Positions 941 through 29,844 of a DNA stretch of 64,000 nt are shown one piece after another; within the stretch, counting starts at the first letter, position 1, and the number at the start of each line of letters is the position of its first letter. Origin of the DNA: Candidatus Campbellbacteria bacterium (GTDB taxonomy: Bacteria; Patescibacteriota; Minisyncoccia; Phycocordibacterales; EsbW-18); assembly GCA_016699465.1 (NCBI GenBank), contig CP064977.1, positions 204,993 through 268,992 on the forward strand, read 5' to 3'. Under the pieces are notes generated by a model. It saw nothing but the letters and a program-made list of their open reading frames with translations. It searched no databases and was not told where the DNA came from. The translations under genes were made by a program, and so were the position numbers.

Positions 941-943
941 AGG

Positions 944-2032: not shown

Positions 2033-2035
2033 AGG

Positions 2036-3064: not shown

Positions 3065-3067
3065 GGG

Positions 3068-3970: not shown

Positions 3971-3973
3971 GGG

Positions 3974-4939: not shown

Positions 4940-4942
4940 AGG

Positions 4943-11047: not shown

Positions 11048-12015
11048 TTACGACACTAACGCCGACCTTGCATCGCGCAAACGCTTGAGCTGTGTCCGTG
11101 CGAGCGCAATCTTCTCTTCCTGCGCCGCAATTGCCGTGTCGATTGCATTTGCAATGCCGGAGAGATCCACAGCAACCGACTCGAGAACCGTGGTGGGTGT
11201 CGGAGGAACTTCCACCGTCTCAGGAGCCGTGGGTGTCTGAGGAACTTCCACCAACATAGGAGAGAGTTTCCGGAGAAACACCTCTCCCTCTGGCGAAATC
11301 CGAAAACGCAGTGGCCGGTTTTCGGAGTTGCGCTCGACTTCGAGATAACCGTTTCGCGCAATAGCTCCGAGGGCTCGCCCGACGGAACGGTTGTCCACCC
11401 TAGGCATCACGTGTTCCTTGACGAGTTCCAGCGCCGAGGTTGAGGAGATCCATTCGCCGATGCCCACCTTCTCTTGGAAGAGAATGAGCACCAGCCCGAA
11501 CTGATTGGGATCCTCACTGAAGCCACGAAGTGACTCGTGCGCAACGGGCGAGAGCCCTTGCATCTCAGCCTGCTCGCGAATGGTGACCGGCTGCGACAAC
11601 ACAACCGGAACAACGGGCGTCACTGGAATGGTCTCCGGAACAGGAATCGTCGCCTGTGGCGACTCGGAAACAACCTCAGGAGCCCAATTGCGCTTCTGCG
11701 CCGCTTCCAACGCCTTGTAGCAAGCAATGATGGAGTAGCCGTTAGGGACGACGAGTCCGCATTCGTGCGCTGAATCGTTGCTCCCCGGTTTCACGTACAC
11801 AGCGATGCTCCCTCGTCGATCGTCATGACCGAGCACCTTGAACTCCGGCCGGTGCGTGGTCCCTTTGACTTTGGGTCCGAGACGAAGCGTCCACGTCTCC
11901 TCACGATCAGAGAGCGGGAATCCTGCAAATTGCAGGTACCGCTCAACGAGACTCTTAGTTCCCTTTGGGACATCCATTCCACGGCGTCCCGTATCAACTA
12001 ACACGAACAGCATGT
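11048..12015 (-). CDS. GC-rich hypothetical protein with a central winged-helix-like segment and a C-terminal coiled coil.
   Basis: ORF with RBS aaggag before the ATG at 12015. About 58% GC against a flanking ~40%. The stretch RALGAIARNGYLEVERN...RFRISPEGEVFL is wHTH-like. Confidence 0.5.
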
Positions 12016-12105
12016 GTAACTCCTTTCTTTCTGTTAAAGAACTAGTTTTTTGAGACAGAAAACAGAACATCTCTGTCTCCAACTGCCAGCAAATTACACC
12101 AGAAT

Positions 12106-13118: not shown

Positions 13119-13182
13119 AAGAACGATTGTATCACCTCATAAAACAACTCCAAAAAATTGGAACATTCCTTACTGTACTCTT

Positions 13183-13215
13183 GACAATAAGTAACCAAGG
13201 TATATTCTTCAGAGT
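13183..13215 (+). promoter_or_regulatory. Sigma70-like promoter for pnuC-nadR-nrtR.
   Basis: TTGACA, 17-nt spacer, TATATT. Confidence 0.5.
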
Positions 13216-13243
13216 ATATTAGTTTGATTAATCCCTAAATCTT

Positions 13244-13909
13244 ATGGACGGATTCTTTAGTGTCAATAATATAGTTTTTACAGTTATCGGATATCCAATG
13301 AGCTATATTGAGTTCTTTGGTACCCTCCTCAATATATGGTGCGTATATCTTGTAGCAAAAAATAAAACACTCAACTGGCCTGTTGGTATTGTGGCAACTA
13401 TCCTTTTTGGATTTCTTTTCTTTCAAATTAATTTATATGCTGATTTTCTTGAACAAATCTATTTCCTCCTCACAGGTTTCTGGGGTTGGTGGGCGTGGAG
13501 TACGGGTAAAAAGAGCGCAAAAGAAGAGAAGCCCGTTCTCGCTCTTTCTTTCACATCTCGTCTGGGGTGGATACTTATCACGTTTGTCGGAACACTCATT
13601 TTAGGATATGTGGATGCCCATCTCAATGTATACTTTCCAAAAGTTTTTACAGAAGCAGCATCATTCCCTTACCTCGACTCGTTTACAACAATCATGAGTT
13701 TTGTAGCAACAATTTTACTTATACACAAAGAATTCGAGGCTTGGTATCTTTGGATTCTTGTGGATATTATTGGTATCTGGCTCTACTGGATAAAAGATGT
13801 TCACTTTGTATCTATTCTATATGTTATCTTCTTTATTCTTGCTGTAAACGGACTCACTACCTGGCGTAAACTTTACAAAAAACAACAATCGCTACAAAAA
13901 ACCATATGA
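13244..13909 (+). CDS. pnuC: Nicotinamide riboside transporter PnuC.
   Basis: Multi-TM protein with the PnuC-like N-terminus NIWCVYLVAKNKTLNWPVGIV and a W-rich loop. Confidence 0.75.
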   Translation: MDGFFSVNNIVFTVIGYPMSYIEFFGTLLNIWCVYLVAKNKTLNWPVGIVATILFGFLFFQINLYADFLEQIYFLLTGFWGWWAWSTGKKSAKEEKPVLALSFTSRLGWILITFVGTLILGYVDAHLNVYFPKVFTEAASFPYLDSFTTIMSFVATILLIHKEFEAWYLWILVDIIGIWLYWIKDVHFVSILYVIFFILAVNGLTTWRKLYKKQQSLQKTI

Positions 13910-14865
13910 TAAAAGGATTCATTATCGGAAAATTCTATCCGTTTCACCTTGGTCATATGTATTTGATTGATGTAGCGAGAGCAAATTGTGACCATTTGAT
14001 TGTTTGGGTCTGTGAAAAAGCAGAACAAACAGTGCTTGGCCATGTTCGTGCCAACTGGATCAAAGAATTATATCCCGATGTTGAGGTACGACTCATACCT
14101 GACACACTTGCAGATGATGATACACAAGGGTGGGCAACATATACACTTCGTGTGCTTGGCGAAGCACCGGATATTGTTTTCACTTCAGAAGACTATGGTG
14201 AGCCGTACGCAAAACTCATGGGCTCACGGCATATAATTGTTGATAAACACCGGGTACACATTCCTATCTCTGGAACGAAAGTTCGTAATGATGCCATCGC
14301 AAATTGGGCCTACCTAGCACCTCCTGTACGAGCCCACTATGCAAAACGTGTCGTTGTGCTAGGTGCGGAATCAACAGGAACCACAACACTTTCAAAAGCA
14401 CTTGCGGAACATTTTCAAACCACATGGGTACCTGAATATGGTCGGGAATACTGTTTACATCGTATAGAAGATCCTGATAAAAAATGGAGTACGGATGAAT
14501 TTATTCATATCGCCTCAGAGCACTCGCGTCGTGAAGATGAGCTGGCCAGAAACGCATATGGAGTTTTGATTAGCGATACTGATGCGTTTGCTACATCAAT
14601 ATGGCACAAACGTTATATGGGATTTTATTCGCCGGAAGTGCAAAAAATTGCTAATAAAAGGAGGGTGGATTTATACATACTTACCGGAGACGAAATTCCT
14701 TTTGTGCAAGATGGCACTCGAGATGGTGAAAACATTCGTCACGAAATGCACATTTGGTTCATTGAAGAAATGAAACGGACAGGAAGAACATACGTCTTAG
14801 TACAAGGTACCCCCGAAGAAAGACTACAGCAGTCTATCAGTGCTATAGAAAAGATTTTAGTTTAA
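13906..14865 (+). CDS. nadR: NadR-like bifunctional NMN adenylyltransferase / ribosylnicotinamide kinase (no HTH domain).
   Basis: N-terminal GKFYPFHLGH (H-x-G-H nucleotidyltransferase motif) and a C-terminal P-loop-like GAESTGTTT...EYGREY resembling the NadR RNK domain. Overlaps pnuC by 4 nt. Confidence 0.75.
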   Translation: MIKGFIIGKFYPFHLGHMYLIDVARANCDHLIVWVCEKAEQTVLGHVRANWIKELYPDVEVRLIPDTLADDDTQGWATYTLRVLGEAPDIVFTSEDYGEPYAKLMGSRHIIVDKHRVHIPISGTKVRNDAIANWAYLAPPVRAHYAKRVVVLGAESTGTTTLSKALAEHFQTTWVPEYGREYCLHRIEDPDKKWSTDEFIHIASEHSRREDELARNAYGVLISDTDAFATSIWHKRYMGFYSPEVQKIANKRRVDLYILTGDEIPFVQDGTRDGENIRHEMHIWFIEEMKRTGRTYVLVQGTPEERLQQSISAIEKILV

Positions 14866-14878
14866 CTATACAAAGTAT

Positions 14879-15562
14879 ATGACACCCAACTCACCACACG
14901 TTAAGTTTGCGATACTTGCATCTGACACAGCTATCTTTACCGTTCGAGATGGAGAACTACTTGTACGTCTCGTAAATGTTGATCGCCCTCCCCACTTTAA
15001 AAATATTCCCGGACTTCCTGGTGGTCTACTCACCCCAAAAGAAACAGCTGACGAAGCAGCACTTCGTCATATAGAGGAGAAGGCACACATCAAAGCAAGT
15101 AAACTATATATTGAACAACTATACACTTTTAGTGCTGTACACCGCGATCCACGAGGACGTGTCGTTGCTGTCGCACATACCGCACTGATCCCTTGGGAAA
15201 ATCTCTCAGCAACAGAGCAAATGGATACCAATGGCGCACAGTGGGTATCTGTCTCGAGTGCACACAAACTTGCATATGACCACGATGAAGTTCTCACTGT
15301 TGCTGTAAATCGTCTACGATCACGTTCCACGTACACAACCATCGTCAGTAAACTCATGCCAGCAGAATTCACACTTTCAGAATTAGAAAAAACATACGAA
15401 AGTATTCTTAAAACCCAATTTGATAAACGAAACTTTCGTAAAAAAATTCTGAAACTGAAAATCCTCAAAGAACTTCCACACAAACGAACCGGTGTTGCGT
15501 TTCGTCCTGCAGCACTCTACACATTCGCGTCTCCTAAAGTTAAAGAGATCGAAATTCTCTAA
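14879..15562 (+). CDS. nrtR: NrtR-like regulator (Nudix-like N-domain plus C-terminal wHTH).
   Basis: Degenerate Nudix box (GGLLTPKETADEAALRHIEEKAHI) and a C-terminal basic helical domain typical of NrtR. Sits in a NAD-salvage context. Confidence 0.6.
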   Translation: MTPNSPHVKFAILASDTAIFTVRDGELLVRLVNVDRPPHFKNIPGLPGGLLTPKETADEAALRHIEEKAHIKASKLYIEQLYTFSAVHRDPRGRVVAVAHTALIPWENLSATEQMDTNGAQWVSVSSAHKLAYDHDEVLTVAVNRLRSRSTYTTIVSKLMPAEFTLSELEKTYESILKTQFDKRNFRKKILKLKILKELPHKRTGVAFRPAALYTFASPKVKEIEIL

Positions 15563-15572
15563 ACGTGTCTTT

Positions 15573-15598
15573 AAAAAGCCCCTACCAAAGGGCTTTTT
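15573..15598 (+). terminator. Intrinsic terminator after nrtR.
   Basis: Hairpin aaaaagcccctaccaaagggcttttt. Confidence 0.8.
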
Positions 15599-15629
15599 AG
15601 TTATCCCCCATATTGATTTGCTAAGGTGC

Positions 15630-15720
15630 TTGACAGCCAGATACTTATTGTATAACATACACTTAGTACAGAGTTTTGAGGGCATATATTTTTTACCTTT
15701 ACTTAGTGTAATGTATACAA
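15630..15720 (+). promoter_or_regulatory. Promoter-like element for nadM with two inverted copies of a ~19-nt motif; candidate operator.
   Basis: TTGACA (15630-15635), 15-nt spacer, TATAAC. The motif gtataacatacacttagta lies at about 15650-15668, and a near-identical inverted copy (gtatacattacactaagta as its reverse complement) lies at about 15700-15718. Confidence 0.4.
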
Positions 15721-15770
15721 TATCTACCCTCTCAATTCGTAGCGTTCTTTGACAAGGAGAATACACAGAC

Positions 15771-16676
15771 ATGAGAAACACAACTGTTGGCGTCGTCGTC
15801 GCCAGGTTCCAGGTAGCGAAACTCCACAAGGGGCACACTTACCTCATCGACTACGTGAACTCGCGCTGCGACAACCTACTCATCATCCTCGGTACAGCTC
15901 GATCCTTCCCCACCAAGAAGAACCCCCTGTCCTTCGAGATGCGCCGGCTGATGATCGCGAACCGGTATCCAAACGCGATCATTGTCCCGCTTCGCGATAC
16001 CAAACTCGACTCCCGTTGGAGTACCGAGCTGGACCTCGCCATCTCCTCTGCCCTTCCCGGTGGTGTTGATGGCCACACCGTCACACTGTACGGTTCCCGT
16101 GATTCCTTCATCGACTTCTACACCGGTGTGCATGCAACACACCTTGTCCCTCCTCTAGGAACGAGCAACGGTACGAAGAACCGTGAGCGTCTCGCGAACA
16201 TCACCGACTCGGTGAAGTTTCGTGAAGGTGTCATCCACACGCAGATGAGCAGGCCGCCGGCCGTGTACCCCACGGTTGACATCGCCATCATCAAACGTGA
16301 GACCAATGAGGTCCTTCTCGGCGGTAAGAATGTGGACGGTGGCAAGCTTCGCTTCGTCGGCGGATTCGTTGACCCGAAGGATACCTCGTATGCAGTCGCT
16401 GCTAAGCGAGAAGTGTACGAAGAAACCACGGGCATCGAAATCGCCGATCTCAAGGAAGTTGGTTCCGCAAGAATCGACGACTGGAGGTATCGGGGCACCG
16501 GAGACAGCGTCATCACGACCTTCTTCACCGCTACGTACATCTTCGGTGCGCTTTGCGCCAGCGACGACCTCGATCGTCTTGTGTGGGTCCCTATCCCTCA
16601 CGTGATAGAGTATCTCGTTCCGGAGCACGAGCCTCTCGGGCTCATGCTTCTCAAGCACTTCAACCAGACCCTGTGA
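15771..16676 (+). CDS. nadM: Bifunctional NMN adenylyltransferase (NadM-type) / Nudix hydrolase.
   Basis: N-terminus GVVVARFQVAKLHKGH is a NadM-type nucleotidyltransferase signature. C-terminal Nudix box ...AAKREVYEETTG. About 60% GC. Confidence 0.75.
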   Translation: MRNTTVGVVVARFQVAKLHKGHTYLIDYVNSRCDNLLIILGTARSFPTKKNPLSFEMRRLMIANRYPNAIIVPLRDTKLDSRWSTELDLAISSALPGGVDGHTVTLYGSRDSFIDFYTGVHATHLVPPLGTSNGTKNRERLANITDSVKFREGVIHTQMSRPPAVYPTVDIAIIKRETNEVLLGGKNVDGGKLRFVGGFVDPKDTSYAVAAKREVYEETTGIEIADLKEVGSARIDDWRYRGTGDSVITTFFTATYIFGALCASDDLDRLVWVPIPHVIEYLVPEHEPLGLMLLKHFNQTL

Positions 16677-16692
16677 CAACAAGGAGAACGCC

Positions 16693-18096
16693 ATGAACGC
16701 ACACATCGAGCTCGGCAACACCGTCACTCGCACCGACAGCTACAAGGTCTCGCACCACCTGCAGTACCCTCCGAAGACCGAGATCCTCTTCTCCTTCTTC
16801 GAGAGCCGCGGGGGCGAGTTCCCCGGCGTGACCTTCTTCGGTCTCCAGTACATCCTCAAGCGGTATCTCGAGGGTGTCGTGGTCACCGAGCAAACGATCG
16901 CCAAGGCCCGTCGGCGCTTCGCCGCGCACTTCGGCTCCGACACGCTCTTCAACGAGAAGGGCTGGCGTAGGATCATCGATGTCCACGGCGGCAAGCTCCC
17001 CATCCGCATCAAGGCCGTTCCCGAAGGAACCACGGTTCCCACGAGCAACGTCCTGATGACCATCGAGAACACGGACCCCGAGCTGCCCTGGCTCACGAAC
17101 TACATCGAGACCATCCTCACCCAGGTGTGGTACCCCTCGACCGTCGCGACCCAGAGCCGTGCGATGCGCAAGCTCGTCCTCTCGTTCCTCGAGAAGACCG
17201 GTGACCCCTCACTCGTCGACTTCAAGGTCCACGACTTCGGGTACCGCGGTTCGACGTCCAACGAGTCCGCTGGCATCGGCGGCGCTGCCCATCTCGTCTC
17301 CTTCAAGGGGACGGACACGATGGTAGCGCTCGACGTCATCGAGGACTTCTACGGCGAGGAGTGCGCGGGGTTTTCCATCCCCGCTGCGGAGCACTCCACG
17401 ATCACGTCGTGGGGCAAGGAGCACGAGGTCGACGCCTACCGCAACATGCTGACCTCGTTCCCTTCCGGTCTCGTCGCCGTCGTCTCCGACAGCTACGACA
17501 TCTACAACGCCTGCAGCCAGCTGTGGGGCAAGGAGCTCAAGGAAGCGGTCATCAATCGTGACGGTGTCCTCGTCGTTCGCCCCGACAGCGGCTATCCGCC
17601 CGACGTCGTGGTGAAGGTGCTCGACATCCTCGGCAACGCCTTCGGCTACAGCATCAACAGCAAGGGCTACAAGGTGCTCAATCCGAAGGTACGCGTCATC
17701 CAGGGCGACGGCATCGACTTCTCGATGCTGCGCCGGGTGCTCGAGGCGATGGAGCAGCACGGATGGTCGGCCGACAACGTCGCATTCGGTTCCGGTGGCG
17801 GCCTGCTGCAGAAGGTGAATCGCGACACCCTGCGCTTCGCCTTCAAGGCTTGCGCTGTCCGTATCGACGGCCTCTGGCACGACGACATCATGAAGGATCC
17901 CGTGACCGATCACTCCAAGCGTTCGAAGGCTGGACGTCTCGTCCTCGTCAAGGACGACAAGACGTACAAGACGATGCGCGAGGAAGAGGCGATGCGGTCG
18001 GGGCTCCCCAACGAGCTCGTCACGGTCTTCGAGAACGGTGAGCTCCTCAAGGAGTACACCTTCGCCGAGATTCGTGAACGTGCCCTCATCGGCTGA
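16693..18096 (+). CDS. nadV: Nicotinamide phosphoribosyltransferase (NAMPT/NadV).
   Basis: N-terminal TDSYKVSHHLQYP is a NAMPT hallmark; 467 aa; about 62% GC. RBS aaggaga lies 7 nt upstream of the ATG. Confidence 0.85.
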   Translation: MNAHIELGNTVTRTDSYKVSHHLQYPPKTEILFSFFESRGGEFPGVTFFGLQYILKRYLEGVVVTEQTIAKARRRFAAHFGSDTLFNEKGWRRIIDVHGGKLPIRIKAVPEGTTVPTSNVLMTIENTDPELPWLTNYIETILTQVWYPSTVATQSRAMRKLVLSFLEKTGDPSLVDFKVHDFGYRGSTSNESAGIGGAAHLVSFKGTDTMVALDVIEDFYGEECAGFSIPAAEHSTITSWGKEHEVDAYRNMLTSFPSGLVAVVSDSYDIYNACSQLWGKELKEAVINRDGVLVVRPDSGYPPDVVVKVLDILGNAFGYSINSKGYKVLNPKVRVIQGDGIDFSMLRRVLEAMEQHGWSADNVAFGSGGGLLQKVNRDTLRFAFKACAVRIDGLWHDDIMKDPVTDHSKRSKAGRLVLVKDDKTYKTMREEEAMRSGLPNELVTVFENGELLKEYTFAEIRERALIG

Positions 18097-18141
18097 CGTC
18101 GTCTCGATCCTCTCATCTGTTTTTCTTCTTTCGTTCTTTTT

Positions 18142-18172
18142 ACCGCCATCACGTCGATGGCGGTTTCTTTTT
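18142..18172 (+). terminator. Intrinsic terminator after nadV.
   Basis: Hairpin accgccatcacgtcgatggcggt followed by ttcttttt. Confidence 0.75.
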
Positions 18173-18243
18173 ATATATAAAATCTATAACGAGGAAGGCC
18201 GCTGTCTTACAACAGCGGCCTAACCAAGAACAACTCCTTAGGG

Positions 18244-18846
18244 TTACAGCTCGGCGAGAGCATCCTCGATCTCGTGCATTAAGATGAGGTGCTTCTCAGC
18301 ATGTGGAAGGTAGTAGCGGCGCGTCTCGACAATCTTCCGCTGACGCTTCTCCGGTGTACACGCGTAGAGCGTCAGCAAGTTGTGAAGACGATCAGCCAAC
18401 TTGATCAGGAAGAACTCACGTGGTGCTGCATCGAAGCGGGTGTGGTACACGAGTTCACGTTCATCACGGTCCGCGTACTCCTCCTTGGATGGCTTCGTGA
18501 GGTACTGCACGTAGAGCGCGACCCGCTCTCCATACTTCACCCGAACGCGCTCAATGGTCCAGGACGGAATGTCCTCGACGATGTCATGGAGAAGCGCGGC
18601 GACGATGAGTTCGTAGTCCCTGATGCGCAGATAGTCGAGCAGGATGAGGGCAACGGCACGAATGTGCTCGAAGTACCTCGTCTTCTGGTCATCGCGATAC
18701 TTCCCACGAAACGCGTCCTTGGCGTCGTTGTACGCCTGCTCAATGAGCTTGTAGCGCCAATCAAGCGTCGGGTAGTAGAGGGCCACCCTTCTGAAAAAGC
18801 TCGCACGATTCTCTGCGGCGGTGAGGAACTGCATCTTTTTATTCAT
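18244..18846 (-). CDS. Small alarmone hydrolase (RelA/SpoT-type HD domain, Mesh1-like).
   Basis: HD motif AALLHDIVEDIP and ...YGERVALYVQYLTKP resemble the SpoT hydrolase domain. About 55% GC. RBS AAGGAGG precedes the ATG at 18846; the ORF track extends to 18879. Confidence 0.7.
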   Translation of the reverse strand: MNKKMQFLTAAENRASFFRRVALYYPTLDWRYKLIEQAYNDAKDAFRGKYRDDQKTRYFEHIRAVALILLDYLRIRDYELIVAALLHDIVEDIPSWTIERVRVKYGERVALYVQYLTKPSKEEYADRDERELVYHTRFDAAPREFFLIKLADRLHNLLTLYACTPEKRQRKIVETRRYYLPHAEKHLILMHEIEDALAEL

Positions 18847-18920
18847 CACCCCTCCTTGGGCTGTATGTGGTCTACCCAAATTATGTCACAAAAGAAATGG
18901 GCTGTCTATAAACTATCGTT

Positions 18921-19484
18921 TTATACTTTTCTGTATCGAAAACACGACACAGTGTGATCATTAACCATACCTGTTGCTTGCATATGCGCATAGATAGTTG
19001 TTGAGCCTAAAAATTTGAAACCACGTTTTTTTAAATCGAGTGCAAGTGCATCCGACTCTTTTGTTTTTGGTTGATACTCTTTGAGAGTTTTTATTTTGTG
19101 CGTCATTGGTTTGTGATTCACAAAAGACCAAATATATTTTGAAAATGTGCCAAACTCTTTTTGTACTTCAAGGAAACGCTGTGCGTTGTTTATTGCCGCT
19201 TCAATTTTTGCACGATTGCGGATTATACCTTCGTTTTTTAGAAGCTGCCGTACTTCTTTTTTTCCAAACTGTGCCACCTTTTTAGGATTGAACTGTGCAA
19301 ATGCTTTTCTGTAGTTTTCTCTCTTACGAAGCACGGTGAGCCACGAGAGTCCTGCTTGTGCACTTTCAAGCACTAAAAATTCAAATATCTTTTTGTCATC
19401 ATACACAGGAACACCCCACTCTTCATCGTGATATTTTTCATACAGCGCGTCGCCTTCTTTAACCCACGGACAACGTTTTATCAT
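18921..19484 (-). CDS. tag: DNA-3-methyladenine glycosylase I.
   Basis: EFLVLESAQAGLSWLTVLRKRENYRKAF matches the Tag family; 187 aa. Confidence 0.85.
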   Translation of the reverse strand: MIKRCPWVKEGDALYEKYHDEEWGVPVYDDKKIFEFLVLESAQAGLSWLTVLRKRENYRKAFAQFNPKKVAQFGKKEVRQLLKNEGIIRNRAKIEAAINNAQRFLEVQKEFGTFSKYIWSFVNHKPMTHKIKTLKEYQPKTKESDALALDLKKRGFKFLGSTTIYAHMQATGMVNDHTVSCFRYRKV

Positions 19485-19634: not shown

Positions 19635-20345
19635 CTATAAACCCACCTCTTTCATTACAACAGTGATGAGATCAAATATCTCTTGTACATTTGCATCTTC
19701 CATCTCTTTTTTTGAAGCAATATGAAAAAGAGAATGTGTTTTATCATTTGCGTCATCTTTAAAAGGAGTTGCCTTTTGTTTGATTCGTTCAATAGCACTT
19801 GAACCCGAAATAGAGAACTTCGTCCGTGACCTAAAAAAATTGTCTAACACAATACTAAAGTCCAAAGATCTCCTACTTGTGTTGTCTTCGTACAGTTTTT
19901 TATTCTTTACACTCGGAAATTTTTTCTTAAGGATTTGTACTATCAAATTTTCCATTACCTTTCGGCAAAGAATAAATGTCGCAGTACAACAATTTGCATG
20001 GTAAGTTCCATTTATTTCCTCAACATGTCGTAGGATAAAACTGTTTGTGGAAGGAAAGACCAAAATTGGAGGAAGTGGGCGCTTTCCACTCCTAACACTC
20101 GGACGCGCAGCCACTGGCACAACAGGTATGGTAGTAACTGTGGCTAATGATTTTTTATCATCATCGTCCAAAAAACGCATGAGGGATTTTCCTTTTTTTC
20201 TTGCCAAATACTGTGCTGCAGCTGCTGGTGTAAGTTGTGGGTGTGCATATTTGATTTCAGAAATACGGACAGCAAGAGAGCCTTTTGTGAGTCTAAGTGT
20301 CTTTATCAGGTGCTCACGAATTTCTTTACGCAGTATCTTTCCCAT
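19635..20345 (-). CDS. Hypothetical protein (236 aa), last gene of the HTH-quartet operon.
   Basis: ORF overlaps the upstream gene by 20 nt. No confident domain; the N-terminus is weakly similar to the HTH paralogs. Confidence 0.5.
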   Translation of the reverse strand: MGKILRKEIREHLIKTLRLTKGSLAVRISEIKYAHPQLTPAAAAQYLARKKGKSLMRFLDDDDKKSLATVTTIPVVPVAARPSVRSGKRPLPPILVFPSTNSFILRHVEEINGTYHANCCTATFILCRKVMENLIVQILKKKFPSVKNKKLYEDNTSRRSLDFSIVLDNFFRSRTKFSISGSSAIERIKQKATPFKDDANDKTHSLFHIASKKEMEDANVQEIFDLITVVMKEVGL

Positions 20346-20529
20346 ATTTTCTTATTGTCTTATTTACAATCTTTGCCACAGCATCAACGTCTGCTTGGTC
20401 AATCCCAAGAATTTCGCGCATCTCCTTGTTCCCCATACCTACTTGTCTGGCATGGAGGATAAATAAAGCCTGTACCCCTTTGTAGAGTTTTTCTTCTGTG
20501 GTAAGAGCCATTCGTTTCTTTTTAGTCAT
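20326..20529 (-). CDS. Small HTH protein, paralog 4 (sigma-70 region 4 / LuxR-like).
   Basis: 67 aa with HTH GMGNKEMREILGIDQADVDAVAKIV. Confidence 0.55.
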   Translation of the reverse strand: MTKKKRMALTTEEKLYKGVQALFILHARQVGMGNKEMREILGIDQADVDAVAKIVNKTIRKYGKDTA

Positions 20530-20719
20530 GAGTTTCTTTGGGAACTCTTATTCCCTTTACTAGACCATTAATTTTTCCAACTGACATGTTCAAGCCTGTT
20601 GCAATTTGTTTTTGTCCTGCACCACCCTTGTACATCTGGACAGCAATCAAGTGTTCTAGAAGGGATGCAATTCTTTGTAGTTTTGCATCTAATAGATGTG
20701 TTTGTTGTTTATTTTTCAT
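20522..20719 (-). CDS. Small HTH protein, paralog 3 (start chosen at MKNKQQ..).
   Basis: HTH GAGQKQIATGLNMSVGKINGLVKGI. Overlaps the neighbouring ORFs by a few nt. The track ORF 20522..20857 has an N-extension that overlaps paralog 2. Confidence 0.45.
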   Translation of the reverse strand: MKNKQQTHLLDAKLQRIASLLEHLIAVQMYKGGAGQKQIATGLNMSVGKINGLVKGIRVPKETHD

Positions 20720-20921
20720 GTTTCTTTTTGTTTTTTCTAGCATTGTGTAAAGCAACATTGACTGTGTTTGGTGTTGTATCAAGCAACTCAGCAATACGTT
20801 TTGGGGAAAGTCCCACATGACCCATTTCCTGTATAACCGCAGATTGTAAAGCTCCACGCTTCACCAGAACTGCCAATAACATCACCACCTCTTTTTGTGT
20901 TTGTAATATCTCTTTGTCCAT
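20709..20921 (-). CDS. Small HTH protein, paralog 2.
   Basis: 70 aa. GLSPKRIAELLDTTPNTVNVALHNARK is a classic sigma-r4/LuxR-type HTH. Confidence 0.6.
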   Translation of the reverse strand: MDKEILQTQKEVVMLLAVLVKRGALQSAVIQEMGHVGLSPKRIAELLDTTPNTVNVALHNARKNKKKHEK

Positions 20922-20923
20922 AG

Positions 20924-21139
20924 TTATTTTTTAGCCCTCTGTAGTGTCTTTTGAACTGCAGGAAGACCCTTACCCAATAATGTGGCTATATCCTTGCTTT
21001 CAAGCCCAATCTTGTCTAGTACGACCTCTAGTTTGACTTTCTTACTTTTTAAGAGTCCCTCGTCCCCCAAAAGTACCAGCACCGCCAAAATAGCAGAGAG
21101 CTTTTTTTCTATGTTTTCAAGGGTTTTTGAGTCATTCAT
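20924..21139 (-). CDS. Small HTH protein, paralog 1.
   Basis: 71 aa, GLESKDIATLLGKGLPAVQKTLQRAKK. Stop and start are 2 nt from paralog 2. Confidence 0.6.
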   Translation of the reverse strand: MNDSKTLENIEKKLSAILAVLVLLGDEGLLKSKKVKLEVVLDKIGLESKDIATLLGKGLPAVQKTLQRAKK

Positions 21140-21260
21140 ATACTTTTTATTATCTCTTATATGGACAGTATAACATAAATAAGCCTGAAATACAATGATT
21201 TTGCCTATTTTTGTCCATCATTACTAAGATTTATGTTTTACCAACGGTGAATAAAAACAT

Positions 21261-21293
21261 ATCGTGGCTTTGTTAAGCCACGCTATGTCTAAC
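21261..21293 (-). terminator. Intrinsic terminator (minus strand) after the 85-aa gene.
   Basis: cgtggctttgttaagccacg hairpin followed on the minus strand by atatgttttta. Confidence 0.5.
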
Positions 21294-21384
21294 TTTTGAA
21301 TATTATATATGAGCACCACAATATATCGGTGTACATATGTCAATTTGACACAGGGTTTCAGTATTACAGGGCAATGACCACCAA

Positions 21385-21642
21385 TTACTGTTTACTACAC
21401 ACTTCACTATTGAGTACAGAACTTAATAGTCTATCAGCAAACTTGTCTCCATTTGCTGAGGCGTGATATAGGGCAGCGACTGCTTCTGTACACTTACCTT
21501 CCTCATAGAAACTCATACCCCTATATATCCATGCTTCTGTATCGTTTTTGTTTCTTTGTTTATAAACAAATATAGCAACAACCAGCACTACAAGGGGTAA
21601 TAAAATAATGAGAGGTTTCTGAATTTTTTGAAAAAATATCAT
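21385..21642 (-). CDS. Small membrane-anchored protein with a Sel1/TPR-like fragment.
   Basis: N-terminal TM segment, then YRGMSFYEEGKCTEAVAALYHASANG. Confidence 0.45.
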   Translation of the reverse strand: MIFFQKIQKPLIILLPLVVLVVAIFVYKQRNKNDTEAWIYRGMSFYEEGKCTEAVAALYHASANGDKFADRLLSSVLNSEVCSKQ

Positions 21643-21752
21643 GAAATGGTTATTTTAGTATTTAGGTATATTAACCTATTTTTACAGCCTGATATTTTGA
21701 TTTGTAAAACAAGTTTTATGAACGTTTGATTTTTGAAAAAAAATCAGTTTTT

Positions 21753-22136
21753 CTAAAACCCAAGCTCCCTCACTGCCTCATGGTACTCTTCTGGGTTACC
21801 TGTAATCGTTTCTCCTGTGAGAGCGTACGACCATTCTGCAACATAAAATCCCGTATAGAGGTCTTTGATAAAGTAGTAAGAGCCTCCCGCTGAACTATAG
21901 CCACCTTTGTATAGGCAAGTTTTCATACTCTTGTTGTATATATACTGTGGTTCAAAATATGTAGTGACAAATGTTTGTTTTTCTAATTCTTTTTCGTGTT
22001 CTTCCTGTCCAGTCTCTCGACACTTGATTGCTTGGTTGGCATAAAACTCGGTATTCCTGCTGGAGGTGTAGAAAAATAAAGAAACAGCTCCAAGCACAAC
22101 TACTAGAGCCGTAAGAATAAAGTTGTTGGTCTTCAT
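21753..22136 (-). CDS. Hypothetical secreted or membrane protein (127 aa).
   Basis: N-terminal signal/TM segment (ILTALVVVLGAVSLFFY); no recognisable domain. Confidence 0.45.
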   Translation of the reverse strand: MKTNNFILTALVVVLGAVSLFFYTSSRNTEFYANQAIKCRETGQEEHEKELEKQTFVTTYFEPQYIYNKSMKTCLYKGGYSSAGGSYYFIKDLYTGFYVAEWSYALTGETITGNPEEYHEAVRELGF

Positions 22137-22668
22137 ATGTGTATCTGCCTAATTAATAAACACAAAACCCGCCACCAGGAGGTCTTGCGACCCTATAGGA
22201 GTTTCCCCCTATAACGTTAGGCACGCCCTGAATGACGGGTTTTTCATGCCTAACGTTTTTGTAACCATGCCCACAAGGGGTTTAGGTCTCCTAAATCTTA
22301 CCGCTTATCTCGTTTTAAAGAAAGCAGAGTTGCATTTTCAAATAAAAAGGTCTAACTTATTGCTAGGCCATGATCGATTGGCAATTAATAAGAAACACTT
22401 TTTGTAGAGGCAGAAACTTCGTTTCATACCTACATTAGCTGCGCCATTACACTTGCTGACTAAGGCATAAATTGAGAGTAACTAGGATTGTCTGGTTGAG
22501 TGTGAGGGGGTAGATGAAGGGCAATGCCCAACTGATGTCTAAAAGTGATTATGCAACCCGCAAGGGTTGTCTACTCGCTTTTGTGCATTGGTTGTTTTTT
22601 TATAACAACCTCTTGTATATGAAGCAACATAAATCATTGTGTTGTTTACTCCACAAGAACGAAGAAAG

Positions 22669-22797
22669 ATGAAAGACATCATTCTTCGTAGAAAAGGTAC
22701 TTCTAAAGAAGAGGCAGAGGTGATGGTTGATAGTTTGTTCGATCTTGCTATTGAATTAGACAAGATCGTGCGTAAACACCATCTGAGGAGAGTTTAA
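22669..22797 (+). CDS. Small ORF (42 aa) upstream of the recombinase; possible directionality or regulatory factor.
   Basis: ATG with stop, MKDIILRRKGTSKEEAEVMVDSLFDLAIELDKIVRKHHLRRV. Not in the ORF track (<60 aa). Weak RBS. Confidence 0.2.
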   Translation: MKDIILRRKGTSKEEAEVMVDSLFDLAIELDKIVRKHHLRRV

Positions 22798-22955
22798 ACG
22801 CTTTCTCCACAGAGAAAGCTGCTGAAATGGGTGGAAGGGTGTGTACTTGTTTCTTTAGTCTATAAAGCACATTTACACACCAACCTCCATTTCTTTATAA
22901 AAACAGAAATTTTGTTTTCTGTGTATTAGGAGCGAAAATTAAACATACATTCACT

Positions 22956-24503
22956 ATGAAAAATATTGCAAAATTAAGCAGACCAAAAACTACTGTCATC
23001 TACACCAGAGTTTCGTCCCAAGAGCAGGTAGCAGGATATAGTCTATCGGATCAAGAAAAGGCGTGCAGAGAGTATGCTCGAAAAAATGAATTGACTGTTA
23101 TTAAGGTTTTTCGTGAAGAGGGAGAATCAGCAAAAATAGCTGACCGTACTCAAATGAACCTGATGAGAGAATATTGCTTGCACAATACAGGCAAAGTTGG
23201 CTTCATTGTTGTCTATAAAGCTGACCGCTTTTCTCGAAACAGTATGGATCACGCACTGCTTCGAAAGTTCTTCAAGGACTGTGGTGTGGAGCTGAGGTCT
23301 GCTACTGAACCTATTGAAGACACTCCTTATGGAAAATTCTTTGAGTTAATGCTCTCAGGAATTGCAAACTTAGATAACGACATCCGAACTGAAAGAACTA
23401 TTCTTGGAATGCGCTCAAAAGCTGAAGATGGATATTGGCCGTCTGGTGCTCCGTGGGGTTATCGAAATGTTACTAATGTTCTTGGAAAGCGTGTTATTGA
23501 ACCTGACCCAATAAAAGCTCCTGTAGTAAAGTTTCTCTTCGAAGAGTTCTCTAGAGGAACAGTTGGTTTTTCTGAGTTAGCAAAAAAAGTAAATAAGATG
23601 TGGGGCGTGAAGAGTAAGCATGGACAAGCAATGAGTAAACAACTTGTTCATAAAATCCTTTGCAATCCAATACATTATGGTTGGGTAGAGGTTTCAAAAC
23701 TTGGAATCTCTGTTCAAGGGAAACATGAGCCAATCATTTCTGCTGAGTTATTCAATGAGGTTCAATTACTTATGAGAAAAGATAGAGGTCATAAACAACC
23801 AAGAAACAGAAACAATCCAGAGTTTCCTCTTAGAGGTGTGAAGTGTGGACATTGTGGAGGTAATCTATCCGGAGGGTTTGTTTCTGGGAGAAATAAAAAA
23901 TATGCCTATTACAGTTGTATGAATCCTTCTTGCTCCAAAGCAAAATCGATACGTAGAGAGAGTTTGGAAAATGACTTCACTGAATTTCTTGAGAAATATA
24001 CTCCAGATCCTATTCTCATGGAGGCTTTGGGAGAAGCATTAAAGATCGTGTCCAAAAAGCAATCTGCTGAAAATCTGATCCAGACCAGTAAGGTAGAGAG
24101 AGTATGTGCCAAGTTGGAGATTGAGATGGAAGAACTCTTACAACTTCGTGTGAGTGGAATTATTGATGATAAAACATATCTTCATGAGAGTAGTAAGAGA
24201 AAAGAAAAAATTAGAAATTTACAAGCGGAGGGAGTCATTCTTGCACGTTCAAATCCAACCCCTGATTCATCAGCCCAATTTGGGCTGAGGTTAATTAGCG
24301 AATTTCCTCTCACATGGAAAATGCTAGAGCCTGGAGAACTGAAAGCACTACGTAGAGTGCTGTTTCCCCAAAATCTCCAGTACATGTATCCTGGATTTAA
24401 AACCGCTGAATTATCCCCTATCTACAAGGTAAAAGCAGCTTCTGGTACAGATGAAAATCGTTTTGTGACCTCATCGGGATTTGAACCCGAGTTTTCGCCT
24501 TGA
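22956..24503 (+). CDS. Large serine recombinase (integrase).
   Basis: N-terminal resolvase catalytic motif YTRVSSQEQ, a recombinase domain, and zinc-ribbon cysteines (CGHCGG...C..C); 515 aa. The last 38 nt overlap tRNA-Glu on the opposite strand. Confidence 0.85.
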   Translation: MKNIAKLSRPKTTVIYTRVSSQEQVAGYSLSDQEKACREYARKNELTVIKVFREEGESAKIADRTQMNLMREYCLHNTGKVGFIVVYKADRFSRNSMDHALLRKFFKDCGVELRSATEPIEDTPYGKFFELMLSGIANLDNDIRTERTILGMRSKAEDGYWPSGAPWGYRNVTNVLGKRVIEPDPIKAPVVKFLFEEFSRGTVGFSELAKKVNKMWGVKSKHGQAMSKQLVHKILCNPIHYGWVEVSKLGISVQGKHEPIISAELFNEVQLLMRKDRGHKQPRNRNNPEFPLRGVKCGHCGGNLSGGFVSGRNKKYAYYSCMNPSCSKAKSIRRESLENDFTEFLEKYTPDPILMEALGEALKIVSKKQSAENLIQTSKVERVCAKLEIEMEELLQLRVSGIIDDKTYLHESSKRKEKIRNLQAEGVILARSNPTPDSSAQFGLRLISEFPLTWKMLEPGELKALRRVLFPQNLQYMYPGFKTAELSPIYKVKAASGTDENRFVTSSGFEPEFSP

Positions 24504-24540
24504 GAAGGCGACGTCCTGGACCAGGCTAGACGATGAGGCC
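24466..24540 (-). tRNA. tRNA-Glu (anticodon CUC).
   Basis: Reverse complement reads GGCCTCATCGTCTAGCCTGGTCCAGGACGTCGCCTTCTCAAGGCGAAAACTCGGGTTCAAATCCCGATGAGGTCA. 7-bp acceptor stem, D-arm like canonical tRNA-Glu, anticodon loop TTCTCAA, T-arm GGTTCAAATCC. Confidence 0.85.
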
Positions 24541-24734: not shown

Positions 24735-24827
24735 GTTTCAAATATTGCCTTTTTTAGCAATCAGCGTACTATCCTAGTGGAATTACCTTGTTCTTTTACA
24801 ATCAAAGAACGAGAACTAAAAGGAGCG

Positions 24828-26333
24828 CCTATGCCGGAAGACGGCGGAAGTACCCCGAGTAAGGAGTTCGTGCTAGACACGAGCTCCATGATGTACGCAC
24901 CACAAATTGCTGACCCCTTGCAGTCCCCCTTTGAGAATCATGAAGTCGTGATTCCCATTGTGGCCCTGCTCGAGCTCGACAATTTGAAGTTGGACCCGAT
25001 GCGTGGAAACAGTGCTCGGGAGGTGATTCGAATCCTCCAAAGCACGTTTCCCTCCAAGGAAAGCATGTGCGAAGGAGTCGCCACACATGGCGGAGGTCGC
25101 ATGCGCATCGTGGGAGCAAACGGAGGAAGTTTCCAGCTCCCTCGAGAGTACCAAGGCAATTCGGGAGATGATTTTATCCTCCGTGTTGCCGGAAACCTCA
25201 CCGAGGCCGAAGGGAAAAAATCTTTGGACGAACGAAAGATGGTCATCCTCGTTTCCAAGGATATTTCCCTTCGCTCAAAGGCGCGGGCGGCTGGGATTGA
25301 GGCCCAAGACCTGCGCATCGGGAAAGTCGAGCGACCGCAAAGCCTTGCTCCACGTATTGTGGATATCGAGGTGCCGACAGAGCTCATCGACGAGCTCTAC
25401 CAGAAACGGTCCATCTCCATCGACGGCTTGGAGTTGCCATTTGGACTCCACGTCAACGCATGCTGTCGCCTCACCAACCCCGAGGGCACTAAACACGCCC
25501 TTGGAATCTACGTGCCCGGCGAACGCATCGTCGTGGTGCATAAGAACAATGACAAAGGAAGAAAAGGCGTGAGTCCGCGCAATGCGGAACAACTCTTCGC
25601 CTACAACCTTGTCATGCGTTCTGAGCTCCTCGTCAATCTGTTCATCGGAAAGGCTGGGACGGGTAAGACGCTGATGGCGCTGAAGGCGGGAATCGAATTG
25701 TTGTCGATTCCCGAGGCGCAAATCAACCGGATTATCTGTTTCCGGCCCATGATTGAGATTGGAACCCCGCTTGGATTCCTCCCCGGAAGTTCCGGAGAGA
25801 AATTCGCTCCGTGGGGTACTCCGATTTACTCAAACCTTGACCTTCTGTTCCCGCGCCATTCCGACAAAAACGGAAACGACGAAGAAAACGAGAACAATGG
25901 GCATGAGGACAAGCACACTGGAAACGGTAACGGTAGCAACGGAGACGTAAAGAAGTTGAAGCGCTCCAAACAGCCTCCGGACCCGCGAGAGAAACTCTCA
26001 CGTCTTCTTGAAACGGGAGTTATCTCGGTTCGTCCTTTCACGTTCGTGAGAGGAACGACATTCTCAAATGCCCTCATCATCGTTGACGAGGCGCAGAACC
26101 TCACTCCTCACCAGCTCAAGGCAGTCCTCACACGGGCAGGTGATTGTTCACGGATTGTGGTGACAGGCGACCTCACGCAAATCGACGACCCCAAACTCGA
26201 CGCCTCTTCATGTGGCCTTGCAAAGGCCCTCGAGCGAATGAGGGGACATGCCGAGTTTGCCGCCATTGAACTGGTGAAAGGCGAACGTTCGCGTCTTGCC
26301 ACACTCGTTTCAGAGTTGTTCATCGACCTCTAG
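24828..26333 (+). CDS. PhoH2-like protein (N-terminal PIN domain plus PhoH ATPase).
   Basis: PIN-like N-terminus (VLDTS...), Walker A GKAGTGKT, PhoH C-terminus. RBS aaaggag precedes the ATG at 24828. About 55% GC. Internal low-complexity insert DKNGNDEENENNGHEDKHTGNGNGSNGD. Confidence 0.75.
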   Translation, partial: PMPEDGGSTPSKEFVLDTSSMMYAPQIADPLQSPFENHEVVIPIVALLELDNLKLDPMRGNSAREVIRILQSTFPSKESMCEGVATHGGGRMRIVGANGGSFQLPREYQGNSGDDFILRVAGNLTEAEGKKSLDERKMVILVSKDISLRSKARAAGIEAQDLRIGKVERPQSLAPRIVDIEVPTELIDELYQKRSISIDGLELPFGLHVNACCRLTNPEGTKHALGIYVPGERIVVVHKNNDKGRKGVSPRNAEQLFAYNLVMRSELLVNLFIGKAGTGKTLMALKAGIELLSIPEAQINRIICFRPMIEIGTPLGFLPGSSGEKFAPWGTPIYSNLDLLFPRHSDKNGNDEENENNGHEDKHTGNGNGSNGDVKKLKRSKQPPDPREKLSRLLETGVISVRPFTFVRGTTFSNALIIVDEAQNLTPHQLKAVLTRAGDCSRIVVTGDLTQIDDPKLDASSCGLAKALERMRGHAEFAAIELVKGERSRLATLVSELFIDL

Positions 26334-27698: not shown

Positions 27699-27716
27699 CC
27701 CGTTACTATTAGTGAT

Positions 27717-29459: not shown

Positions 29460-29763
29460 GCAAAGTCAACGTATGAGCATCTTGACGAGAAACAAACAAC
29501 GAAACGTCTGTATCAATAAAACCTCGCATATGTGCATCATCCAACGTCAATAAATCCATACGACGCATATAGTCATGCTCAAGCGTACTCACTGAAGCTG
29601 CGGTATCAGCCACCTGCTGTTTCAGAATATCTTGATCAACAGCACGCGCATACGTCTGTACTGCCAATACTCCATACATCACAAGAACACTACACAGCGT
29701 CATACTTAATGTAACGATTGCTTTCTTGTAGAGCGTATTCAGTTGGAAGAGGTCGCGAACCAT
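29443..29763 (-). CDS. ftsL: FtsL-like cell division protein.
   Basis: 106 aa with a single TM and a coiled coil; position conserved between rsmH and ftsI. Confidence 0.6.
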   Translation of the reverse strand: MVRDLFQLNTLYKKAIVTLSMTLCSVLVMYGVLAVQTYARAVDQDILKQQVADTAASVSTLEHDYMRRMDLLTLDDAHMRGFIDTDVSLFVSRQDAHTLTLHDRAY

Positions 29764-29768
29764 GTGTG

Positions 29769-29805
29769 TAGATATTAGATATTAGATATTAGATATTAGA
29801 TATTT
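29769..29805. repeat. Heptanucleotide microsatellite (gatatta) x4 plus one variant, immediately upstream of the ftsL start codon.
   Basis: The sequence tagatattagatattagatattagatattagatattt is directly visible. Confidence 0.9.
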
Positions 29806-29844
29806 GGTTCTTTTGTTTGGAATGTGATGCTTGGTTATTGATGC

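Follow-up and report, generated by a model that had tools for sequence, protein, structure and literature searches.

An NrtR-type NAD+ salvage locus with GC-rich codon usage in a Candidatus Campbellbacteria chromosome

In the NrtR regulons surveyed by Rodionov et al. (2008; PMC2330246), the repressor, a Nudix-like protein with a winged helix at its C terminus, acts at 21-bp palindromes with a GT-N7-AC core before operons for the salvage of nicotinamide adenine dinucleotide (NAD+), examples being Synechocystis #nadM-nadV and Hahella nrtR<#>pnuC-nadR-#nadM. Nicotinamide phosphoribosyltransferase (NAMPT) and nicotinamide mononucleotide (NMN) adenylyltransferase (NMNAT) are also the two enzymes of the phage NAD+ reconstitution pathway 2 (NARP2; bioRxiv 10.1101/2024.02.11.579819). 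We analyzed a 64-kb window of a Candidatus Campbellbacteria (Parcubacteria) chromosome, the window being the whole stretch of DNA inspected and the frame for all coordinates given here, in which nadM-Nudix, nadV, and a gene for a small alarmone hydrolase (HD) form a GC-rich block between nrtR and tag. An earlier note on this DNA had taken the block for a foreign cassette of phage type. Our analysis indicates that the region 13170-18172 is very probably a classical NrtR regulon of NAD+ salvage, with nadM-Nudix and nadV as its resident target operon and not a new insertion. We are likewise confident that this regulon joins NadV/NadM nicotinamide salvage with PnuC/NadR riboside salvage and is a known system in organization and function. 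The GC-rich codon usage of nadM, nadV, HD, and at least four other genes of the window is a separate feature with two candidate explanations.

The NAD+ salvage locus and its operators

The gene identities that the earlier note gave to the block, an NMNAT fused to a Nudix hydrolase, a NAMPT, and an alarmone hydrolase, are borne out by Pfam, NCBIfam, and structure-profile matches, as is the neighboring pnuC-nadR-nrtR operon. The promoter and terminators that it assigned to the block are also present, with TTGACA-17-TAACAT at 15630-15658 and hairpins after nrtR, nadV, and HD. The features of the locus are given below, with the GC content at third codon positions (GC3) of its genes. Related loci compared with the window are labeled by L-numbers (L001, L046, L210, etc.), and W stands for the window's own copy.

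13170..13190, + strand: putative NrtR operator TTACTGTACTCTTGACAATAA, overlapping the -35 box of the pnuC-nadR-nrtR promoter (TTGACA at 13181, TATTCT to 13208)
13244..13909, + strand: pnuC, nicotinamide riboside transporter (Pfam NMN_transporter, 1.9e-50; TIGR01528, 113 bits vs a cut-off of 42; GC3 0.35)
13906..14865, + strand: nadR-type NMN adenylyltransferase/ribosylnicotinamide kinase without a helix-turn-helix domain (AAA_28 and CTP_transf_like; GC3 0.32)
14879..15562, + strand: nrtR, Nudix-related repressor with a predicted response to ADP-ribose (Pfam NrtR_WHD and NUDIX; GC3 0.31)
15574..15597, + strand: terminator hairpin AAAAGCCCC-tacca-AAGGGCTTTT after nrtR (perfect 8-bp arms; position kept in L001 and L003)
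15630..15658, + strand: nadM-nadV promoter TTGACA-17-TAACAT (promoter scan; TTGACA kept in relatives)
15645..15665, + strand: putative NrtR operator 1, TTATTGTATAACATACACTTA, a 21-bp palindrome with a GT-N7-AC core overlapping the -10 region of the nadM promoter
15703..15723, + strand: putative NrtR operator 2, TTAGTGTAATGTATACAATAT, 58 bp past operator 1 within the transcribed leader
15771..16676, + strand: nadM-Nudix, NMN adenylyltransferase (residues ~1-150, LHKGH) fused to an ADP-ribose pyrophosphatase-like Nudix domain (GC3 0.705)
16693..18096, + strand: nadV, nicotinamide phosphoribosyltransferase (Pfam and NCBIfam; GC3 0.882)
18142..18172, + strand: intrinsic terminator of nadM-nadV (hairpin 18142-18164), 9-bp stem and T-run (sequence and scan; kept in L210/L211)
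18197..18220, - strand: terminator-like hairpin GGCCGCTGT / ACAGCGGCC after HD with a weak T tail (sequence; kept in L210/L211; not called by the terminator scan)
18244..18846, - strand: HD, small alarmone hydrolase of 200 amino acids (aa) with one RelA/SpoT-type HD hydrolase domain (Pfam HD_4, 2.7e-14; GC3 0.72)
18880..18908, - strand: promoter-like site of HD, TAGACA-17-TG-CATAAT, in the tag-HD spacer (consensus match only)
18921..19484, - strand: tag, 3-methyladenine DNA glycosylase I, in the same orientation as HD and forming the low-GC flank (Pfam Adenine_glyco, 9.4e-82; GC3 0.32)

The earlier note had left it to be checked if the nadM promoter has a genuine NrtR operator, and the answer from the sequence is positive, with two sites at 15645 and 15703. 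When the pattern TTAGTGTA-N5-TACACTAA was scanned over the 64 kb with up to 3 mismatches, it matched only at 13170, 15645, and 15703; 0.24 matches are expected by chance, and 3 were reached in 0/100 shuffles. Of the 19 Parcubacteria-type loci, 18 have at least one such site before nadM, and 12 have two, 58-65 bp apart. Among loci without nrtR, which are mostly viral, a site was found in only 7 of 110. Operator-type boxes also stand upstream of nrtR in L003, L046, and L047, and the nadM leaders of seven genomes share the promoter, two 21-bp palindromes, and the ribosome-binding region. The operators at the nadM promoter tie the GC-rich genes to the low-GC native repressor. This promoter is not a foreign one, as it has two conserved NrtR operators and its sequence lines up with the nadM leader of the relatives.

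Matches to curated families agree with these assignments to different degrees. NrtR has an N-terminal NUDIX domain (1.8e-9) and a C-terminal NrtR_WHD domain (6.3e-22; 77.9 bits vs a cut-off of 27) in Pfam, is 63-78% identical to the NrtR of relatives, and matches NCBIfam NF050029 at E 7.8e-38 with 130 bits, against an equivalog cut-off of 400. NadR matches TIGR01526 at E 5.6e-62, under the cut-off of that model. NadV contains NAMPT_N (PF18127; 3.7e-35) and NAPRTase (PF04095; 2.4e-56) and scores 623 bits against NCBIfam NF006629, over the curated cut-off of 405; the title of that model is "nicotinate phosphoribosyltransferase", and the NAMPT call is based on the NAMPT_N domain and on the annotation of homologues, which are given as nicotinamide phosphoribosyltransferase. 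An AAGGAG ribosome-binding site precedes nadM, and another lies in the 16-nt spacer between nadM and nadV.

The locus resembles the published regulons (PMC2330246) in its type of repressor and operators, in having exactly nadM(-Nudix)-nadV and pnuC-nadR as targets, and in autoregulation through an operon containing nrtR. Unlike those regulons, it comes from the Parcubacteria, which the survey did not include; its motif has a consensus of its own (TTAGTGTA-N5-TACACTAA), its two nadM operators lie about 58-65 bp apart, and its NrtR and NadM are divergent, with an ADP-ribose response proposed by analogy. Going by the known biology of these families, NrtR dimers would occupy the 21-bp palindromes at the nadM promoter (-10 region and leader) and at the pnuC-nadR-nrtR promoter, and would be released when NAD+ consumption lets ADP-ribose build up. 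NadV would then convert nicotinamide and phosphoribosyl pyrophosphate (PRPP) to NMN, and the NadM domain would convert NMN and ATP to NAD+. The fused Nudix domain may cleave ADP-ribose to AMP and ribose-5-phosphate, which would remove the inducer and feed PRPP synthesis. In a parallel branch, PnuC and NadR would bring in and convert nicotinamide riboside.

NadM-Nudix is the most divergent of these proteins in its family matches. Pfam detects only its Nudix half (NUDIX, 1.1e-9), and the N-terminal half gives weak matches to NMNAT models, contains the LHKGH motif that is kept across orthologues, and matches the structures 2qjt and 1f9a. A profile of seven orthologues found Francisella 2qjt at E 2.3e-15 over both domains and Synechocystis 2qjo at 1.6e-8 in the Protein Data Bank. 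The best NCBIfam equivalog score (PRK05379 models) was 37.5 bits vs a cut-off of 354; scores this far below the cut-offs mark a divergent subfamily whose activity is predicted and not assured. The protein shares with NadM-Nudix of Francisella tularensis (2qjt/2r5w) and Synechocystis slr0787 (2qjo) the order NMNAT then Nudix, a nadV neighbor, the (H/T)xGH motif (here LHKGH), and an SGT..R-like motif, and the family profile covers both domains. However, its similarity to the Francisella protein is distant (E 2e-15 by profile, 2.5e-5 by single sequence), it is shorter (301 aa vs 340-352 in the Francisella and Synechocystis proteins), in its Nudix box the first Glu is replaced by Asp and one residue is inserted, and its subfamily is found mainly in Parcubacteria and on predicted viral contigs. 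A single-sequence AlphaFold model of NadM had a mean confidence score (pLDDT) of 41 and was not used.

Two further elements of the nadM leader are conserved. One, CATATATTTTTTACC, lies between the two NrtR boxes (window 15666-15702) and has equivalents in L001, L003, L046, and L048; the other, GTTCTTTGACAAGGAGAA, is at the ribosome-binding site. A search of the leader for riboswitches and other known RNAs found no Rfam family at gathering thresholds. In some Parcubacteria, a gene for an ADP-ribosylglycohydrolase lies in or beside the nrtR-nadM-nadV locus (L046, 7808-8827; L047, 3284-4264; L052). The copy in L046 has an operator-like TTAGTGT upstream, which suggests that the regulon covers the reversal of ADP-ribosylation too.

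Conservation of the locus and its phage relatives

The earlier note had placed the block as an insertion between nrtR and tag and had raised the possibility that related strains lack it. Neither view is supported by gene order. All 19 distinct Parcubacteria-type loci, which were gathered by protein look-ups and a metagenome scan with the NadM alignment, have the order nrtR-nadM-nadV, and so does every relative context read (L001/2, L003-5, and L046-L049), with the block at the same place. No relative without nadM-nadV at this position was found among the loci examined. L001 shares the convergent HD gene and, further on, murE-ftsI-rsmH-mraZ, for which the window counterpart is 26418-31525. A genome-collection scan with NadV by exact peptide words gave only two Parcubacteria, plus Deinococcus and others.

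Sequence comparisons place the genes in the same lineage. NadV and HD are 100% identical to Candidatus Campbellbacteria proteins encoded on an 811-kb contig. The closest NadV matches are all from Patescibacteria/Parcubacteria (65-86% identity), and Parcubacterial chromosomal genes are also the nearest homologues of NadM (40-78%) and HD (61-95% among the best 120 of 405 relatives). In neighbor-joining trees of sequences cut from tblastn matches (high-scoring segment pairs, HSPs), W, L001, and L003 form a clade in 100% of 200 bootstraps for both NadV and NadM, and the identity matrices of nrtR, nadM, and nadV yield one and the same clade. Gene order and coarse phylogeny thus fit vertical inheritance with sister lineages, which the earlier note had named as evidence against its own proposal. 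The other such sign that it named, uniform GC with the rest of the genome, was not seen: GC3 in the block is 0.71-0.88 against a background of 0.3-0.4. Compared with a genomic island, the block has the atypical composition, and we found neither absence from the relatives read nor flanking mobility genes or repeats.

A conserved protein of ~340 aa is encoded at 11048-12082 (- strand), with counterparts in L001 (5721-6737), L046 (4620-5657), and L047 (5797-6810), and has no Pfam, NCBIfam, or PADLOC match. In relatives it always stands in a purA-unk338-unk390<>nrtR context and is GC3-rich (0.65-0.81). In the window, low-GC ligT-like, DUF4406, pnuC, and nadR genes separate it from nrtR.

As the earlier note said, the enzymology is the two-step route of phage NARP2 from nicotinamide through NMN to NAD+. 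The locus shares with the KVP40 pair, NadV and NatV, both reactions, the adjacency of the genes (nadM and nadV are 16 nt apart here), and the fusion of NMNAT to Nudix, and this NadM subfamily is common on predicted viral contigs: IMG/VR holds 304 relatives at 37-49% identity, usually beside nadV in the NARP2 arrangement. Unlike phage NARP2, the window genes are chromosomal, conserved in the host lineage, and under a cellular repressor that, by analogy, would sense ADP-ribose, and they are at most 51% (NadV) and 39% (NadM) identical to reference phage proteins.

One group of predicted viral contigs is GC-rich (64%) and comprises L130 (UViG_3300033233_000001, 298 kb), L131 (UViG_3300037483_001170, 107 kb), L054, and L056. 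Its gene order is nadM - ADP-ribosylglycohydrolase - x - nadV, and it has genes for a DNA methylase, an RNA ligase, a class II aminoacyl-tRNA synthetase-like protein, and TnpB. A nadM-ADP-ribosylglycohydrolase-nadV module common to Parcubacteria and this group was considered and rejected, as the glycohydrolases are only 22% identical. In the trees, the nrtR-linked Parcubacterial copies form one clade with the viral group nested inside; for NadV, this clade reaches 86% support when the viral group is counted in, and the Parcubacteria alone are monophyletic in 9% (NadV) and 0% (NadM) of bootstraps. This nesting indicates gene transfer, at some point in the past, between Parcubacteria and such elements. 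The window is 60-66% (NadV) and 44-49% (NadM) identical to the viral group, no closer than to distant Parcubacteria, and its copies are not specifically related to the group.

The third gene of the block has a different history. HD matches the Rel/SpoT hydrolase domain, MESH1, and small alarmone hydrolase (SAH) structures (Rel/SpoT and MESH1 at E 1e-17 to 4e-11), and it resembles the hydrolase-only RelA-SpoT homologues in its single domain of ~200 aa and in its motifs HDxxED (HDIVED) and LADRLHN (KLADRLHN), which align with Rel hydrolase domains. Its start at ATG 18846, the end coordinate given by the earlier note, is preceded by AAGGAGG, and its product is identical to a 200-aa NCBI protein. 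The family has 405 relatives at E <= 1e-10; the source names of the best 120, which are 61-95% identical, are all Parcubacterial or Patescibacterial. Although the family is Parcubacteria-wide, HD lies beside nadV only in the window and its closest relatives (L210/211 and L001), and its contexts in L212 and L213 are unrelated. SAHs can neutralize toxic small alarmone synthetases (toxSAS; PMC7229694). Unlike toxSAS-paired SAHs, HD has tag and nadV as neighbors and belongs to no recognizable toxin-antitoxin pair; a RelA_SpoT synthetase domain was found in no annotated open reading frame (ORF) of the window and in neither the L212 nor the L213 context. Since HD lies elsewhere in L212 and L213, which are outside the closest relatives, and since no toxSAS or defense protein is nearby, the trio is neither a conserved nor a functional module. 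In all likelihood, HD is a stand-alone member of a Parcubacteria-wide family, predicted to be a (p)ppGpp/(pp)pApp-type hydrolase, with its own promoter-like site and an incidental position next to nadV. Candidate substrates are (p)ppGpp, (pp)pApp, or NADPH, the last because MESH1 also acts as an NADPH phosphatase (10.1101/325266).

GC-rich codons in nadM, nadV, HD, and other genes

The GC-rich block that the earlier note saw between low-GC flanks is real and extreme, but nrtR is 43% GC, not 38-40% as stated there. In a window with a mean GC of 45%, the profile runs at 0.37-0.38 over 15500-15800, 0.56-0.65 over 15800-18100, 0.46 in the nadV/HD intergenic region, 0.54-0.58 over HD, and 0.35-0.38 in tag, with a range of 0.33-0.46 on the two sides of the block. 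GC/GC3 values are 0.567/0.705 for nadM, 0.625/0.882 for nadV, 0.557/0.717 for HD, 0.431/0.307 for nrtR, and 0.381/0.324 for tag, and nearly all other ORFs of the window have GC3 of 0.21-0.43. At codon positions 1+2 the block has the same GC as the background (0.48-0.50), and the anomaly is thus confined to synonymous differences. Within a gene, GC3 stays level; its steps coincide with the gene borders. In nadV, 3% of codons end in A, with 27 AAG vs 0 AAA, 22 TTC vs 1 TTT, and ATC for 24 of 25 Ile codons. At least four single genes elsewhere in the window are also GC3-rich (0.61-0.93):

11048-12082, - strand: the ~340-aa protein without a family (GC3 0.61)
24777-26333, + strand: PIN+PhoH ATPase beside tRNA-Glu (GC3 0.61)
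31473-32060, - strand: SemiSWEET-like membrane protein, overlapping the start of the mraZ-like gene (GC3 0.67)
49077-49601, - strand: protein of 174 aa without a family match, its C-terminal tail rich in Lys/Ala (GC3 0.93)

No gene of the window has more extreme codon usage than the last of these, which lacks A-ending codons; between it and nadV, relative synonymous codon usage shows a correlation of 0.80.

The step is old and is not an assembly artifact, since it recurs in two independent assemblies, L210 (JGI) and L211 (Logan), which have 86% DNA identity to the window over tag-HD-nadV 3' end and combine tag at GC3 0.32 with an adjoining HD at GC3 0.75. Synonymous divergence (dS) between W and L210 is similar for the two genes, 0.69 for tag and 0.58 for HD, as estimated by the Nei-Gojobori method under strong composition bias. 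Among other lineages, nadV GC3 exceeds the background by 0.37 in L049, 0.3 in L080 and in L003, 0.27 in L001, 0.26 in L046, and 0.22 in L082, and by about 0 in L050, L067, and L068. Many genomes and phages have nadM/nadV GC3 at the background level. Within the Parcubacterial clade, nrtR follows the host. The HD and unk344 families behave similarly to nadM/nadV in other genomes.

Substitutions were polarized by three-taxon parsimony, with sites partly saturated, and on the W branch gave the following values.

nrtR: GC>AT per GC site 0.35, AT>GC per AT site 0.07, implied equilibrium GC3 0.17
nadM: GC>AT per GC site 0.18, AT>GC per AT site 0.34, implied equilibrium GC3 0.65
nadV: GC>AT per GC site 0.04, AT>GC per AT site 0.27, implied equilibrium GC3 0.87

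Synonymous GC-to-AT change is thus about nine times rarer in nadV than in the adjacent nrtR. On other branches, nadV is decaying to background in L001, L089, and L096 (implied equilibrium GC3 0.55, 0.39, and 0.24) and is seemingly stationary, as in W, in L046, L049, and L080 (0.67-0.87 for these four, with nrtR at 0.12-0.38). Expression-linked codon bias was rejected as a cause: mreB, frr, greA, hpf, the aminoacyl-tRNA synthetases, and the relatives' groEL/groES have GC3 at or below background, and such low values in housekeeping genes mean that the bias is not the usual codon adaptation to expression.

The GC anomaly of the block, together with the identity of its two enzymes to those of NARP2, the 304 IMG/VR contigs with this NadM subfamily, mostly adjoining nadV, the nesting of the GC-rich viral group in the Parcubacterial NadV clade (86% bootstrap with it, 9% without), and the role of SAHs as toxSAS antitoxins, would be in keeping with a recent cassette of phage origin, NARP2 plus an anti-toxSAS hydrolase, domesticated as an anti-defense module. 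The locus, however, is kept in all relatives with the native repressor and operators, the window genes group with the chromosomal copies of L001/L003 at 100% bootstrap and not with the viral group, and HD is unlinked to nadV in L212 and L213. A recent phage or actinobacterial origin is also at odds with closest homologues that are Parcubacterial and with best identities of 51% (NadV), 38-39% (NadM), and 38% (HD) among 50,697 reference phage genomes. The neighbors are the housekeeping genes dnaE, thrS, murE, ftsI, and mraZ, with no adjacent phage genes and no mobility gene abutting the block; a serine recombinase gene at 22956 is 4 kb off in a separate low-GC stretch. PADLOC returned no match for the three proteins or their neighbors, no toxSAS, SIR2, or TIR gene occurs among the ~60 annotated ORFs of the window, and we found no evidence of an anti-defense role, with no SIR2/TIR-type or PADLOC-recognized system near the locus. 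A phage cassette is therefore very improbable, and the evidence here already largely refutes it. Even less credible, to the point of being negligible, is a chimeric contig joining GC-rich and AT-rich organisms by assembly or binning. The source is a metagenome-assembled genome with abrupt GC steps, but the low-GC tag / high-GC HD / nadV-3' junction recurs in assemblies from other samples (L210 and L211), the steps fall exactly at gene borders within a gene order common to many genomes, and the AT-rich operator leader is contiguous with the GC-rich nadM in all relatives.

Two further explanations concern composition only. A tentative but reasonable one, compatible with a resident NrtR regulon, is that orthologous alleles of GC-rich Parcubacterial relatives or elements overwrote the resident nadM-nadV and, separately, HD and a few other genes before the L210 split, with the regulator, operators, and gene order retained, and are now slowly ameliorating. 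The nadV GC3 excess does range from 0 to +0.5 among lineages, the mixture of decaying and stationary copies is what a set of recent and older recipients would give, GC3 steps fall on whole genes, and GC-rich sources exist, namely Parcubacteria with a background GC3 of 0.69-0.74 and the GC-rich viral group inside the NadV clade. The W-L210 differences in HD are compatible with neutral decay from about 0.84, as estimated from counts of GC/AT-class differences. The donor, however, must have been a close relative, since host-like-GC3 nrtR and nadM/nadV give the same coarse relationships, and no sampled close relative has a GC3 of at least 0.88; the 150 C-terminal residues of NadV, used to look for a fragment from an L210-like close relative, gave no match above 70% identity. 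On the W branch, nadV has 13 GC>AT changes at 307 GC sites (0.04), against the ~0.13 per site suggested by HD and tag over the W-L210 interval, which is hard to square with neutral decay since before the W-L210 split. Moreover, nadV, nadM, HD, and unk344 are GC3-rich in several unrelated low-GC genomes and varied contexts (HD in L213, 0.57 vs 0.32). These last points are better suited to a gene-specific force that holds nadV, nadM, the hydrolase, and a few others at GC-rich codons in situ, either selection on synonymous sites (by way of translation, mRNA stability, or protection from AU-specific RNases) or GC-biased gene conversion through frequent recombination. The contrast of nadV with nrtR on the W branch, the extreme and coherent codon bias of nadV, its GC3 above local background in nearly all clade members, GC-rich ones included, and a sharp step at gene borders with an age of at least dS ~0.6 also speak for such a force, which we regard as plausible but less than likely. 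The excess is zero in L050, L067, and L068, nadV decays as fast as nrtR in L089 and L096, housekeeping genes of the window and the relatives' groEL/groES are at background GC3 or lower, and three-taxon parsimony is biased near saturation. It is similarly uncertain, and on balance unlikely, that a small fixed set of families (nadV, nadM, the hydrolase, unk344, and probably others) stays GC-rich in several AT-drifting Parcubacteria. Heterogeneity among lineages fits replacement, and maintenance fits how seldom nadV changes from GC to AT and how the same families recur; overall, allele replacement from GC-rich relatives is slightly more likely than gene-specific selection on synonymous sites.

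Several points weigh against the interpretation of the locus as a resident NrtR regulon. A GC3 of 0.71-0.88 in a 0.3-0.4 background is unexpected for a long-resident gene under the mutation bias of the genome, and a lateral component such as allele replacement is plausible. The proposed descent is read from neighbor-joining trees on HSP-derived sequences only. NadM-Nudix and NrtR fall far under the NCBIfam equivalog cut-offs and are divergent subfamilies, with activities and an effector that are predicted. The Nudix box GFVDPKDTSYAVAAKREVYEETTGI (REVYEETTG) keeps RE..EE, but relative to the canonical GX5EX7REUXEEXGU, Asp replaces the first conserved Glu and one residue is inserted. Finally, auxotrophy, the lack of de novo NAD synthesis, is assumed, and the view of the genome is 64 kb.

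Other features of the window and implications

Six tandem paralogous ORFs of 258-362 aa occupy 38-5719 (- strand), with 52-54% GC and a GC skew of +0.3. Each contains 5-10 copies of a 63-bp (21-aa) repeat, LTSAEGLTLPHSIGGxLxLxx; they look like leucine-rich repeat proteins, and their sole family match is a weak one to DUF7131. At 19635-24540, a low-GC stretch contains small ORFs without families, a LOOT RNA at 22180-22288 (- strand; 68.9 bits), and a gene for a large serine recombinase at 22956-24503, the 3' end of which overlaps tRNA-Glu(CUC) at 24465-24540 (- strand). This stretch probably represents an integrated element; the corresponding HD-murE interval of L001 is occupied by other genes (ParB-like and DUF4435). 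A PD-(D/E)XK Cas4-like nuclease (41471-42448, - strand) and an ATP-cone + Mrr_cat protein (43273-44103, - strand) are encoded amid housekeeping genes, and no complete defense system was recognized.

The locus illustrates that a strong GC island does not on its own point to a new insertion: its oddity lies in the codons alone, and its regulator, operators, and gene order are ancestral. A GC-rich reservoir, made up of relatives or of large phages with this NadM/NadV subfamily, may keep re-seeding the few genes concerned. Should in-situ maintenance of these codons prove true, whether by selection on synonymous sites or by biased gene conversion fed by repeated exchange with GC-rich relatives or phages, the locus would offer an exceptionally clear natural example of gene-specific control of codon composition in a reduced genome. 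For the Parcubacteria, which are ultra-small and probably cofactor-dependent bacteria, the locus places in this group the textbook NAD+ recycling loop under NrtR and presumed ADP-ribose control, and the lineage-specific operator consensus can be used for mapping the NrtR regulon across the Parcubacteria.

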